NCBI RefSeq assembly: GCF_017348835.2
Contig: NZ_CP071375.1
Reading direction: 5' to 3' (one strand)
DNA: 64,000 nt
Source: Escherichia coli
GTDB lineage: Bacteria > Pseudomonadota > Gammaproteobacteria > Enterobacterales > Enterobacteriaceae
Below the pieces are notes generated by a model. The model was not told the DNA's origin and ran no database searches. It saw only the letters and a program-made list of their open reading frames with translations. The translations under genes and the position numbers were made by a program. Of the stretch, positions 1 to 13,744 are shown in pieces (position 1 is the stretch's first letter; each line of letters starts with the position of its first letter).

Positions 1-944
1 TCAAGGGCAGTTGCCAGAGATTGCACCGCCGCGTAGGTGATCCAGACATAAGGCCCGGACGGATCTTTCTTGTCTGCTTTCAGCGCATCAACGATGCCCT
101 GGTTTGCCGGATCCTGGTCATAGCGTTTTGGCATAGTGACCAACATGCCTTCGGCGGCATCACCGGCAATGTTCGACAACGACGCATTACCCACACCTTC
201 CGGCCCCATAAACTGGGTTTTCAGGCCAACGGAACGGGCCTGGCGCAGCATCTGCCCCATTTCCGGGTAGTAACCGCCGTAGTAAACGAAGTCGATGTTT
301 TCTTTTTTCAGGCGGGCGATCAGCGCGGAGAAATCTTTCTCCCCGGCGGTAATACCGTCGAAGAAGACGACGTTGGCGTTAGCCGCTTTCAGCCCGTCCT
401 GCACCGAACGCGCCAGCCCTTCGCCATACTGTTGTTTGTCGTGAATGATGGCGATGCGCTGAGGCTTCACCGTCTCAAGAATGTATTTTGCCGCCGTTGG
501 CCCCTGGGAAGAGTCCAGCCCGGCAGTACGCATAATGTGTTGATAACCGCGTTGGGTCAGCTCCGGGTTGGTCGCTCCCGGCGAGATCATCAGAATACCT
601 TCGTCTTCATAGATATCTGACGCAGGCTGGGTAGAAGAAGAACACAGATGACCAATAACGTATTTAATGCCGTCATTAACGATTTTGTTGGCGACCGCAA
701 CGGCTTGTTTCGGGTCGCAGGCGTCGTCATATTCCACGCCAACCAGCTTATCGCCTTTAATTCCCCCTTTGGCATTAATGTCTTTAATCGCCTGACGCGC
801 GCCGTTAAATTCCATATCGCCCCACTGGGCAATCGGGCCGGACATCGCGCCGACAACGGCAACTTTAATATCGTCGGCTAAAGCGGTGTGTGAAATTGCC
901 AGTGCAATCATCCCTGCGATGATAGTTTTCGCATTCCGTTTCAT
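1..944 (-). CDS. livK: Leucine-specific periplasmic binding protein LivK; 3' end lies beyond the window start
   Basis: Reverse complement of 861-944 translates [28 protein letters not shown]; reading frame is open to position 1; absent from ORF track because it runs off the window. Confidence 0.85.
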
Positions 945-1367
945 AGTCAAAAATCCCCATTCGTGATGTTGTGTTGCTTTGTTTTTATGTGTTAACAAAT
1001 CAGACTGTTCTTTTTTTATACTGCACTGTTTTTGCCTGTCTGATTAAGGGTTTAGCGCAGTATTTTGTGATAATAGCGATTAAAGTCCCTATTTTTCAGT
1101 CGATTAAGAACAGATAATATTCTGAATTTATTGATAGATAAACAGAAAAAAGTGCCTTTGTCAGCATAAAATAACGGCACAAAGGGCGGAATAATTCACT
1201 ACCATTCAGGGGATTATGCTGGGTATTTTTCATTCTCTAATGTTTTAACTTTGTAATTATTGCTGTTAAAAAATTAATCACCTGCCAAAAGAAATAAAAA
1301 AGAGAAAGCCTCCGATTAAATTATTTCGCTACACTGGTTCCACTTTTGTGATTTACACGGGTTACCC

Positions 1368-10596: not shown

Positions 10597-12804
10597 ATGT
10601 CGACTCCTGACAATCACGGCAAGAAAGCCCCTCAATTTGCCGCGTTCAAACCGCTAACCACGGTACAGAACGCCAACGACTGTTGCTGCGACGGCGCATG
10701 TTCCAGCACGCCAACGCTCTCTGAGCTCTCTGAAAACGTCTCCGGCACCCGCTATAGCTGGAAAGTCAGCGGCATGGACTGCGCCGCCTGTGCGCGCAAG
10801 GTAGAAAATGCCGTGCGCCAGCTTGCAGGCGTGAATCAGGTGCAGGTACTGTTCGCCACCGAAAAACTGGTGGTTGATGCCGACAATGACATCCGTGCAC
10901 AAGTTGAATCTGCGGTGCAAAAAGCGGGCTATTCCCTGCGCGATGAACAGTCCGCCGACGAGCCACAAGCATCGCGCCTGAAAGAGAATCTGCCGCTGAT
11001 TACGCTAATCGTGATGATGGCAATCAGCTGGGGTCTGGAGCAGTTCAATCATCCGTTCGGGCAACTGGCGTTTATCGCGACCACGCTGGTTGGGCTGTAC
11101 CCGATTGCTCGTCAGGCATTACGGCTGATCAAATCAGGCAGTTACTTCGCCATTGAAACGTTAATGAGCGTAGCCGCTATTGGTGCGCTGTTTATTGGCG
11201 CAACGGCTGAAGCTGCGATGGTGTTGCTGCTGTTTTTGATTGGTGAACGACTAGAAGGTTGGGCCGCCAGCCGCGCGCGTCAGGGCGTCAGCGCGTTAAT
11301 GGCGCTGAAACCAGAAACCGCCACGCGCCTGCGTAACGGTGAGCGGGAAGAGGTGGCGATTCACAGCCTGCGCCCTGGCGATGTGATTGAAGTTGCGGCG
11401 GGCGGGCGTTTGCCTGCCGACGGTAAACTGCTCTCGCCCTTTGCCAGTTTTGATGAAAGCGCCCTGACCGGCGAATCCATTCCGGTGGAGCGCGCAACGG
11501 GCGATAAAGTTCCTGCAGGAGCCACCAGCGTAGACCGTCTGGTAACGCTGGAAGTGCTGTCAGAACCGGGTGCCAGCGCCATTGACCGGATTCTGAAACT
11601 GATCGAAGAAGCCGAAGAGCGCCGCGCCCCCATTGAGCGGTTTATCGACCGTTTCAGCCGTATTTATACGCCAGCAATTATGGCCGTCGCCCTGCTGGTA
11701 ACGCTGGTGCCGCCGCTGCTGTTTGCCGCCAGCTGGCAAGAGTGGATTTATAAAGGGCTGACGCTGCTGCTGATTGGCTGCCCGTGTGCGTTAGTTATCT
11801 CCACGCCCGCGGCGATTACCTCCGGGCTGGCAGCAGCGGCACGTCGTGGGGCGTTAATTAAAGGCGGTGCGGCGCTGGAGCAGCTAGGTCGTGTTACCCA
11901 GGTGGCGTTTGATAAAACCGGTACGCTGACCGTCGGTAAACCGCGCGTTACCGCGATTCATCCGGCAACGGGTATTAGTGAATCTGAACTGCTGACACTG
12001 GCGGCGGCGGTCGAGCAAGGCGCGACGCATCCACTGGCGCAGGCGATCGTGCGCGAAGCACAGGTTGCTGCACTCGCCATTCCCGCCGCCGAATCACAGC
12101 GGGCGCTGGTCGGGTCTGGCATTGAAGCGCAGGTTAACGGTGAGCGCGTATTGATTTGCGCTGCCGGGAAACATCCCGCTGATGCATTTGCTGGTTTAAT
12201 TAACGAACTGGAAAGCGCCGGGCAAACGGTAGTGCTGGTAGTACGTAACGATGACGTGCTTGGTGTCATTGCGTTACAGGATACCCTGCGCGCCGATGCT
12301 GCAACTGCCATCAGTGAACTGAACGCGCTGGGCGTCAAAGGGGTGATCCTCACCGGCGATAATCCACGCGCAGCGGCGGCAATCGCCGGGGAACTGGGGC
12401 TGGAATTTAAAGCGGGCCTATTGCCGGAAGATAAAGTCAAAGCGGTAACCGAGCTGAATCAACATGCGCCGCTGGCGATGGTCGGTGACGGTATTAACGA
12501 CGCGCCAGCGATGAAAGCTGCCGCCATCGGGATTGCAATGGGCAGCGGCACAGACGTGGCGCTGGAAACCGCCGACGCAGCATTAACCCATAACCACCTG
12601 CGCGGTCTGGTGCAAATGATTGAACTGGCACGCGCCACTCACGCCAATATCCGCCAGAACATCACTATTGCGCTGGGGCTGAAAGGGATCTTCCTCGTCA
12701 CCACGCTGTTAGGAATGACCGGACTATGGCTGGCGGTACTGGCAGATACGGGTGCGACGGTGCTGGTAACGGCGAATGCGTTAAGGTTGTTGAGCAGGAA
12801 ATAA
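10597..12804 (+). CDS. zntA: Zn/Cd/Pb-exporting P-type ATPase ZntA
   Basis: 735-aa ORF with N-terminal CCCDGAC and GMDCAACARK metal-binding motifs, CPC transmembrane motif and DKTGTLT phosphorylation site. Confidence 0.95.
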   Translation: MSTPDNHGKKAPQFAAFKPLTTVQNANDCCCDGACSSTPTLSELSENVSGTRYSWKVSGMDCAACARKVENAVRQLAGVNQVQVLFATEKLVVDADNDIRAQVESAVQKAGYSLRDEQSADEPQASRLKENLPLITLIVMMAISWGLEQFNHPFGQLAFIATTLVGLYPIARQALRLIKSGSYFAIETLMSVAAIGALFIGATAEAAMVLLLFLIGERLEGWAASRARQGVSALMALKPETATRLRNGEREEVAIHSLRPGDVIEVAAGGRLPADGKLLSPFASFDESALTGESIPVERATGDKVPAGATSVDRLVTLEVLSEPGASAIDRILKLIEEAEERRAPIERFIDRFSRIYTPAIMAVALLVTLVPPLLFAASWQEWIYKGLTLLLIGCPCALVISTPAAITSGLAAAARRGALIKGGAALEQLGRVTQVAFDKTGTLTVGKPRVTAIHPATGISESELLTLAAAVEQGATHPLAQAIVREAQVAALAIPAAESQRALVGSGIEAQVNGERVLICAAGKHPADAFAGLINELESAGQTVVLVVRNDDVLGVIALQDTLRADAATAISELNALGVKGVILTGDNPRAAAAIAGELGLEFKAGLLPEDKVKAVTELNQHAPLAMVGDGINDAPAMKAAAIGIAMGSGTDVALETADAALTHNHLRGLVQMIELARATHANIRQNITIALGLKGIFLVTTLLGMTGLWLAVLADTGATVLVTANALRLLSRK

Positions 12805-12836
12805 AGGTGTTGCCTGATAGCCTCTGGCTATCAGGG

Positions 12837-13145
12837 TTAGTGCTGGGCCGGGAACGGTGGCATGGTCAGGAAAGTGTAATATAGCGCTAACATCAGAATG
12901 ACGGAGATAACACAACATGTAGCAACCAGGCGGGACGTGAATGATGGCCTTTTGAACATCAACCACAGGGCATAAGCAAGCCCGACGCCGTTAAGTAAAG
13001 GTAAAAAAATCATTAGCCAGAGCCAACCACAGGCAAGTACCCCCAGCCATCCCCCCACGGCGATTAAAACAGGCATCAGCCAATTGGGGGCGAACATCGC
13101 GAACAATCCCAGCAATCCCAGGCAAACAGGAATTAAATAATCCAT
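12837..13145 (-). CDS. Hypothetical small hydrophobic membrane protein, 102 aa; not recognised
   Basis: Intact 102-aa ORF with about three predicted TM helices, convergent with zntA; weak SD-like sequence; no family recognised. Confidence 0.3.
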   Translation of the reverse strand: MDYLIPVCLGLLGLFAMFAPNWLMPVLIAVGGWLGVLACGWLWLMIFLPLLNGVGLAYALWLMFKRPSFTSRLVATCCVISVILMLALYYTFLTMPPFPAQH

Positions 13146-13169
13146 TTGTGTATTCCATTACACTTGCTT

Positions 13170-13203
13170 GCCGGATGCGGCGTGAACGCCTTATCCGTCC
13201 TAC
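13170..13203. repeat. REP (repetitive extragenic palindrome) element
   Basis: GCCGGATGCGGCGTGAACGCCTTATCCG-type REP core between the small ORF and tusA. Confidence 0.7.
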
Positions 13204-13289
13204 GTACCGGTTTCAAGCAGCAACATTGAGTGCGATCGGTCCACTCGCCCCTCTGGGGAGAGGGTTAGGGTAACAGTCCGTGATCCACC

Positions 13290-13535
13290 TTAACCACCTT
13301 TACGAATCAAATAACGATAAGGCAGTCCATCCGTCTCTTTAGCAACCAGTTCGTGTTCCATAAAGGTACAAAACCCAGGAATATCGCGGGTCGTCGCCGG
13401 ATCGTCAGCAATAATCAGCAACGTTTCACCTGGCTGCATATTGCGCACTGTTTTGCGCACCATCATGACTGGTTCCGGGCAGCGCAGGCCAAGTGCGTCG
13501 AGTGTGTGGTCAGGGCTGGAAAAGAGATCGGTCAT
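13290..13535 (-). CDS. tusA: Sulfur carrier protein TusA, 81 aa
   Basis: 81-aa ORF with the conserved [11 protein letters not shown] motif. Confidence 0.95.
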
Positions 13536-13744
13536 TTTCTTCTCATCACATAAAAAAACGGCGCTAGTTTACGCCCTGTGAGTCCGTAAGCAAACCAGGT
13601 TAACGATTGCGTGAAAATTAACCATTGCATTGTCAACGTAAAGCAGTATCATGCGGCGGCTCGAAAAAAGGGTAAGCACGTATAAAATAGCGTGTCGCAC
13701 GTATTGGGTTCCCTCACCCCAATGGTTAATCAAAAAGGTACAAT

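Follow-up and report, generated by a model that had tools for sequence, protein, structure and literature searches.

Locus and distribution

An earlier sequence-only reading of a 64,000-nucleotide stretch of Escherichia coli DNA (contig NZ_CP071375.1; hereafter the window) had pointed to an intact, hydrophobic open reading frame (ORF) of 102 codons between zntA and tusA, convergent with zntA, which it could not place. We analyzed this frame, here called ORF102. The ORF listing of the window reproduced its position (12837..13145, minus strand, ATG start) and its 102-aa translation exactly as first quoted. Upstream on the same strand, across a gap of 144 nt, lies the TusA-family gene tusA (13290..13535), the presumed source of its transcript, and on the other side it faces the convergent zntA (10597..12804, plus strand). 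The spacer had been thought to be GC-rich, which is not the case: the GC content of ORF102 is 0.498 and that of the whole window 0.501.

A megablast survey found the segment in 315-317 of 5,426 complete E. coli genomes, or ~6%. As shown in our alignment A1, a block of ~400 bp (approx. 12807..13202 in the window), comprising a hairpin, ORF102, its leader and a repetitive extragenic palindromic (REP) element, is missing from the K-12 derivative J53, a B strain, and O157:H7 and ST131 genomes. In a third allele, of the AHB29 type, two REPs are retained and ORF102 is gone. ORF102 is dispensable, and the segment has been lost from ~94% of complete E. coli genomes. The absence of the whole segment from K-12 and most other E. 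coli explains why the frame could not be placed before. A tblastn search for ORF102 remnants in genomes without the segment gave nothing significant. A 40% match over 35 aa to the C-terminal helix of ZntA (E = 0.16) was considered as a remnant and judged to be compositional.

The product is already annotated. The window allele is WP_000385059.1, a 'hypothetical protein' in the identical strain PE164 and present in O145:H28 strains among others, and the annotation pipeline PGAP gives the same label in every carrier genome listed. A second allele group, with about 91-93% DNA identity, has the product accessions WP_000385055/56. The exact window protein occurs in >1000 contigs of public data, and its UniProt entry (A0A066QZ38) reads 'Uncharacterized protein'. 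The suggestion of an overlooked small membrane protein therefore stands as regards the membrane protein, in view of hydropathy and structure prediction (see below), and falls as regards the oversight, because PGAP and UniProt list the product: ORF102 is annotated and uncharacterised.

Relatives were sought by word-indexed HMMER against 5.8 billion proteins, by full phmmer against 1.84 billion representatives and by a profile search against 5.8 billion proteins. All relatives belonged to the genus Escherichia, plus a single outlier, P0039. The Escherichia matches came from E. coli, E. marmotae, Escherichia sp. E4742 and other cryptic-clade strains, together with E. albertii fragments. Synteny was identical at all contigs looked up (yhhS-dcrB-yhhQ / tusA -> ORF <- zntA-yhhN), and the order tusA -> ORF <- zntA was observed in E. 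marmotae, Escherichia sp. E4742, E. whittamii, E. albertii and cryptic clades. A pattern and tblastn scan that does not depend on gene calling, run on one genome per GTDB species, found ORF102 in five representatives, all Escherichia (sp. E1V33, a diverged 'E. coli', sp. MOD1-EC7003, the E. albertii type strain and E. whittamii), and in all five the frame was intact at 102 codons. By tblastn, no match was found among 50,697 phage records. We also rejected carriage on a mobile element, given the lack of a phage match, a lone PLSDB hit to a 4.9-Mb record that is evidently a chromosome, and the lack of mobile-element genes nearby.

Conservation of the reading frame

In order to assess whether the frame is maintained, we compared 15 distinct alleles, which represent six or more Escherichia lineages and include those of the five tblastn representatives. 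The frame was open in 15/15; rather than being interrupted in most related genomes, it was either deleted outright or intact. Length variants among full-length alleles were all in frame, namely a +9 nt duplication in one E. coli locus (L025), a 99-aa form (P0002) and a 94-aa form (P0022). Substitutions were counted on a neighbour-joining tree with Fitch reconstruction, and the 146 changes split 41/29/76 over codon positions 1/2/3 (chi-square P = 5e-6). Synonymous changes numbered 67, compared with 46.1 +/- 5.4 expected (P = 0.0002) in a mutation-type-preserving permutation, in which mutations are reassigned at random among the sites that carry the base concerned. Among the six frames, the annotated frame alone was both open and enriched in synonymous changes; the antisense frame that shares its wobble position echoed the signal yet contained stops. 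A conservative count per variable site gave 26/20/42 at the three positions (chi-square about 8.8, P about 0.01). Total nucleotide divergence of ORF102 was 0.086, against a local neutral rate of 0.27 at four-fold degenerate sites of tusA and zntA. We also considered an overlapping 55-aa ORF (12991..13158) as an alternative-frame gene and rejected it, as synonymous changes are not in excess in the other sense frames, which also gain and lose stops.

Disrupted copies do occur. In an even sample of carrier genomes, 59/60 looked intact and 1/60 was frameshifted, and the disrupted variants are found in 1-12 contigs each versus >1000 contigs for the window allele. Some of them (P0023-P0029) carry N-terminal frameshifts and use an ATG of another frame 13 nt upstream. 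Another group (P0032-P0036, beginning MIFYLYLT) arose from recurrent -1 frameshifts in a T7 homopolymer at 13003..13009 (minus strand; codons I46-F47-L48 on the coding strand), giving 61-aa products in several E. coli assemblies; a one-T deletion translated by hand reproduces them. One O145 genome has a copy marked 'frameshifted' by PGAP. Rare young disruptions amid deep intact lineages are the pattern predicted under purifying selection. Taken together, the intactness of the frame across species, its codon periodicity, the frame-specific synonymous excess and a cross-genus homologue beside tusA rule out a chance ORF, the second possibility raised by the sequence-only reading. ORF102 appears to be under weak purifying selection.

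A separate kind of variant was seen in a metagenome contig (ERZ27296531 k141_16413; L037 3001-3174), where P0037 consists of the first 33 residues of ORF102 fused to the last 24 of ZntA. The join lies at a short sequence common to ORF102 and zntA in inverted orientation (GGATGGCTGG), and the contig terminates in the hairpin. P0037 is either the product of an inversion involving zntA and ORF102 or an artefact of assembly.

A relative in Superficieibacter

The only relative outside Escherichia, P0039, is a protein of 83 aa that phmmer found with E = 9.7e-5 against the 1.84 billion proteins. In a composition-adjusted BLASTP comparison with ORF102 it gave E = 1e-14 at 36% identity, with the C-terminal FPAQH common to both. 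Its gene starts 35 bp downstream of tusA and is preceded by an AGGA Shine-Dalgarno sequence (contig L005). This contig matches Superficieibacter genomes at 94-97% identity on both sides of a 911-bp segment (405-1315), which starts right at the tusA stop, takes the place of a 132-bp spacer, and carries P0039 and a convergent 162-aa ORF (688-1176, minus strand). No Pfam family matches the latter, a singleton in a collection of 15 billion proteins. When the contig was compared with E. coli loci by blastn, tusA aligned and the ORF did not; from these alignments, the likeness of ORF102 and P0039 at the protein level has outlived their DNA likeness. We regard the homology as real, because it is implausible that the best remote match among 1.8 billion proteins should lie next to tusA by chance. 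The tusA 3' junction of a second genus is thus polymorphic for presence or absence of the homologue as well.

BLASTP pairs residues 2-83 of P0039 with residues 21-102 of ORF102. The strongest in-frame self-similarity of ORF102 occurs at an offset of 57 nt, where nt 13-69 and 70-126 (13020..13133, minus strand) agree at 33/57 positions against a background of 16.4 +/- 3.3. As this offset equals the difference between 102 and 83 aa, the Escherichia form is a three-helix core to which an in-frame tandem duplication of 19 codons has added helix 1.

In Enterobacteriaceae, synteny breaks down on the 3' side of tusA (loci L012-L016 and L031-L035), while the yhhS-dcrB-yhhQ side is conserved. The gene following tusA is zntA in Escherichia and also in Pluralibacter (3-nt gap, no ORF), a dctPQM tripartite ATP-independent periplasmic (TRAP) transporter in Cronobacter, Pseudocitrobacter and Atlantibacter, and a GntR/aminotransferase gene in Superficieibacter. 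The small ORF does not accompany tusA as a general rule. When looked for in four other genera and in typical Superficieibacter, a small ORF after tusA was not found.

Divergence at synonymous sites

We then compared divergence at four-fold degenerate sites for the same genome pairs (loci L002-L030). It was 0.118 in ORF102, 0.273 in tusA and 0.263 in zntA. The drop is sharp at the borders of ORF102, with 0.217 in the adjoining 150 nt of zntA and 0.308 in the last third of tusA. Moreover, ORF102 distances were uncorrelated with those of the flanks (rho 0.04-0.20), and the flanks correlated with each other at 0.59. The low value reflects either a younger, reticulate cassette history across Escherichia species or constrained synonymous sites. 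This matters for the strength of selection: omega of ORF102 would be about 0.2-0.3 if the flank rate is neutral, and about 0.5-0.8 if the cassette is merely younger.

These observations could also point to a conserved nucleotide-level element, that is, an RNA or DNA signal, an antisense or 3'-untranslated-region function for zntA, or a recombination cassette, in which the ORF is incidental. The low four-fold divergence with its sharp borders, the lack of correlation with the flanks and a very conserved hairpin between the two stop codons would all fit such an element. Against it, RNA folding lends no support to a structural cause of the low synonymous divergence, stability being ordinary on both strands (z = +0.31 and -0.17), and the search for Rfam families gave only a sub-threshold REP-derived match. 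In addition, substitution periodicity tracks the sense frame, and the Superficieibacter homologue is alike in protein only. We therefore consider this explanation very unlikely.

A doubtful idea is that ORF102 and P0039 form a new tusA-linked membrane-protein family on a small chromosomal cassette, swapped among Escherichia species independently of the flanks. If this were true, cassette exchange would account for the low synonymous divergence with sharp borders, for an ORF allele tree that ignores species relationships, and for the presence/absence polymorphism at the tusA 3' junction in two genera. Such a polymorphism could then be maintained by balancing or niche-specific selection, possibly linked to sulfur relay or metal homeostasis.

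Predicted protein

The ORF102 protein is very hydrophobic (grand average of hydropathy 1.35), and its charged residues are solely D2, K65, R66, R72 and H102. From a 10-sequence alignment, AlphaFold2 predicts four helices (4-18, 24-39, 41-65 and 69-94; mean predicted local distance difference test score 71.5) where about three had been anticipated. Together, hydropathy and the predicted helices support a small membrane protein as the product. The sole basic cluster (K65, R66, R72) falls between helices 3 and 4. According to the positive-inside rule, basic loops are cytoplasmic, so the loop 65-72 is predicted to be cytoplasmic and the conserved C-terminal tail periplasmic. With the same C-terminal topology, P0039 would have its N-terminus inside (K2) and ORF102 outside (D2). 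Residues kept in both genera include P25, G32-W33-L34, N52, G55, P67, R72, S81 and the FPAQH tail, among others. No cysteine or intramembrane charge is conserved: C8 lies in the added N-terminal helix that is absent from P0039, and C39, C77 and C78 vary within Escherichia.

Searches of Pfam (none at E <= 1), NCBIfam, PHROGs and PADLOC gave no significant family for ORF102; the only PHROGs match (E = 0.33) was to a family of unknown function. Fold libraries gave no match either. The only named family that surfaced in sequence searches was MrpF/MnhF/PhaF, a subunit of Mrp-type cation/H+ antiporters (6u8y chain B), which resembles ORF102 in size (84-91 aa) and multi-helix hydrophobicity. Both matches were weak, with NF009243 scoring 15 bits, far short of its cut-off of 95 (E = 0.031), and PDB 6u8y_B at E = 0.86, and both span residues 45-93. 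Composition best accounts for the likeness. Pfam gave nothing, there is no mrp/mnh operon, and the neighbours are tusA and zntA; we rejected this assignment. The small multidrug resistance proteins (EmrE/SugE), of about 105 aa and with four transmembrane helices, are also similar in outline. They were rejected because ORF102 has no Pfam match to Multi_Drug_Res and lacks the essential membrane-embedded Glu of helix 1, its only acidic residue being D2.

Presence/absence polymorphism in two genera and a very hydrophobic product would also be expected of a toxic small membrane protein, for instance a type I toxin or one resembling a holin, that forms part of a module for addiction, exclusion or defence, and the uncharacterised 162-aa ORF beside the L005 homologue might be taken for its companion. 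However, there was no PADLOC or PHROG match, no PHROG holin family among them, and the gene occupies a fixed, core chromosomal locus, with no copies on phages or true plasmids. Type I toxins have under ~60 aa and a single helix, unlike the 102 aa and four helices found here. No antisense small RNA signal was detected, the only small RNA family being the sub-threshold REP-derived match, and there is no companion gene in Escherichia. Both type I toxin and phage holin were thus rejected as family assignments, and a toxic role is the least probable of the explanations that we weighed.

Flanking elements and expression

The stop codons of zntA and ORF102 are separated by 32 nt, occupied by a hairpin with a perfect 10-bp stem and a 3-nt loop (12813..12835), a candidate shared 3' end or terminator. 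Its free energy is -16.4/-17.1 kcal/mol in the window and about -20 in other alleles, and the mean p-distance of this spacer across alleles is 0.06. It has no canonical U-tract, and the terminator scan made no call there. In E. whittamii (L030) the loop (window 12823-12825) is flipped, reading TCT instead of AGA in the ORF sense, with the arms unchanged, as expected from recombination across a palindrome.

Upstream of ORF102, a weak Shine-Dalgarno-like GGA (13154..13156, minus strand) is located 8 nt before the ATG, inside a leader motif ATGGAAT that is common to all alleles compared. The sequence-only reading had placed a REP after the ORF. The palindromic unit (gccggatgcggcgtgaacgccttatccgtcctac, read from the sequence) lies at 13170..13203, between tusA and ORF102, and is thus upstream in the ORF's own orientation; the sub-threshold Rfam match, to the REP-derived naRNA4, is at 13129-13200. 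REP copy number differs between alleles (alignment A1). Next to the tusA stop is a G-rich hairpin repeat (CCCCTCTGGGGAGAGGGTTAGGG, about 13222..13272), the sole part of the spacer kept in K-12-type genomes. The K-12 copy, between zntA and tusA, is listed in PMC5100583 as a hairpin-G-quadruplex (HPGQ) element. In the window, the G-rich repeat (13248-13272) has just three G-runs, GGGG-AGAGGG-TTAGGG, and the K-12 copy goes on with GTGAGGGG.

Further variation was noted around the locus. In E. coli RMDEC465 (L022 3058-4038), an IS621 (IS110-family) transposase gene sits in the REP region and parts ORF102 from the tusA promoter. About 25 nt upstream of the tusA start, a terminator-like hairpin with a T-run (GGCGTAAACTAGCGCC GTTTTTTTAT; 13560-13575, minus strand) might serve tusA as a leader or attenuator, and a similar hairpin is found in the Superficieibacter contig L005, around 115-140. 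zntA has 735 codons in the window and PE164 and 732 in the other Escherichia loci fetched, and the zntA genes of E. albertii and MOD1-EC7003 have an additional indel within the last 900 nt.

A minus-strand scan from tusA to ORF102 found no sigma-70-like promoter and no terminator-like site, which makes co-transcription with tusA the simplest model. ORF102 would be transcribed from the tusA promoter by reading through the G-rich repeats and the REP, probably as the distal gene, and the transcript may end at the hairpin shared with convergent zntA. Translation would start from the weak GGA Shine-Dalgarno. The protein would then insert into the membrane with the K65-R66...R72 loop in the cytoplasm and both the N-terminus and the C-terminal PPFPAQH tail in the periplasm.

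This arrangement raises the question of a function linked to TusA, in which the membrane protein would cooperate with this cytoplasmic sulfur carrier, for example by tethering it to the membrane or feeding it a sulfur compound, in parallel with the pairing of YeeE/YedE and the TusA-like YeeD/YedF. The YeeE/YedE (TsuA-type) system resembles the present locus in that a membrane-protein gene adjoins a TusA-like gene. Two genera have the ORF directly behind tusA and in the same orientation, despite a differing far neighbour (zntA in one and the 162-aa ORF in L005), and the lack of intervening promoter or terminator signals is in line with this idea. YeeE/YedE proteins have about 350 aa, conserved catalytic cysteines and their own Pfam family. 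ORF102, in contrast, has 102 aa, no Pfam match (Sulf_transp) and no conserved cysteine, so that membership of this family was rejected. Moreover, tusA is highly conserved and works without ORF102 in K-12 and most Enterobacteriaceae, and the adjacency may merely reflect the tusA 3' junction as a hotspot of insertion, deletion and rearrangement. On balance we regard a TusA-linked function as rather improbable.

Discussion

Our results are best explained by ORF102 being a genuine, lineage-restricted accessory gene for a polytopic inner-membrane protein of ~11 kDa, a reading to which we assign a probability of roughly 0.58. As for its role, the most speculative step of the model, the product would most likely serve as a small subunit, accessory or modulatory, bound to another membrane protein by helix-helix contacts, rather than as a transporter or enzyme. 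This suggestion comes from the absence of a conserved intramembrane charge or cysteine together with the conservation of the intramembrane N52 and the tail. We favour a modulatory membrane-subunit role over TusA-specific, toxin or nucleotide-level roles.

Known small accessory inner-membrane proteins (AcrZ, KdpF, MgtS, CydX) mostly have fewer than 50 aa and a single helix, and for each a partner has been demonstrated. ORF102 shares with them its short length, strong hydrophobicity and presumably non-enzymatic character, and, as is often the case for these proteins, it is lineage-restricted, dispensable and near or within an operon of larger function, with few conserved residues besides helix-packing positions. 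It differs in having 102 aa and four helices and no sequence relationship to them, so the likeness is one of functional class only. ORF102 can also be compared with Escherichia orphan genes, being confined to one genus plus a single outlier, without a detectable family, with elevated omega, short, and often lost. Unlike a pure de novo Escherichia orphan, it has a 36%-identical homologue at the same tusA junction in Superficieibacter.

Several observations weigh against an accessory membrane-protein gene. The majority of alleles entered the comparison as called proteins. In ORF102, tusA and zntA, 30-54% of informative site pairs failed the four-gamete test, and with such heavy recombination at the locus the tree counts are inflated and the permutation and chi-square P values optimistic. 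Pairwise omega (Nei-Gojobori method, NG86) of ORF102 was 0.25-0.7, and Goldman-Yang maximum-likelihood omega was 0.43-0.83, versus 0.00-0.11 when tusA and zntA were compared across the same pairs of genomes, both estimates being confounded by recombination. Overall, omega is about 0.3-0.8 for ORF102 and about 0.04 for its neighbours. As omega of ORF102 is well above that of its neighbours, constraint relative to its own synonymous rate is weak. The Shine-Dalgarno is weak as well, and the REP and G-rich hairpin between tusA and ORF102 could attenuate read-through. Furthermore, the gene is missing from ~94% of complete E. coli genomes, no such ORF follows tusA in Pluralibacter, Cronobacter, Pseudocitrobacter, Atlantibacter or typical Superficieibacter, and a literature search on the protein accessions found no paper citing them.

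Some of these points would equally suit a relic, or a young proto-gene, that is near-neutral now, open through recent shared ancestry and in the course of being deleted across E. coli. The maximum-likelihood omega, the absence of the segment from 94% of genomes and the weak Shine-Dalgarno are all in keeping with decay, as are the many distinct frameshifted or truncated variants among cluster representatives, and with low synonymous divergence few mutations had the chance to strike the frame. Nevertheless, about 4-6 stop-creating changes were expected and stops were found in zero alleles. The position bias, in both the tree and the per-site counts, and a synonymous excess limited to the ORF102 frame are also at odds with neutrality. 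Deep-branching alleles are all intact and the disrupted ones are rare tips, and neutral DNA would not keep the protein similarity that is retained in P0039. A relic therefore seems unlikely to us, although it deserves more weight than the other explanations discussed above.

Under the favoured reading, that of a weakly constrained accessory gene, the finding is modest, at the level of annotation and not of a new mechanism. ORF102 has never been studied because the common laboratory strains all lack it. Its carriers include lineages of clinical relevance, namely enterohaemorrhagic E. coli O145:H28 and another group with about 265 complete genomes. Should the protein be made, the E. coli pan-genome would gain one further uncharacterised, strain-variable small membrane protein. 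The history of ORF102, in which one helix of a three-helix core was duplicated in frame and the gene was lost repeatedly, offers a compact example of small-membrane-protein evolution, and its position beside tusA and its low synonymous divergence provide testable leads.

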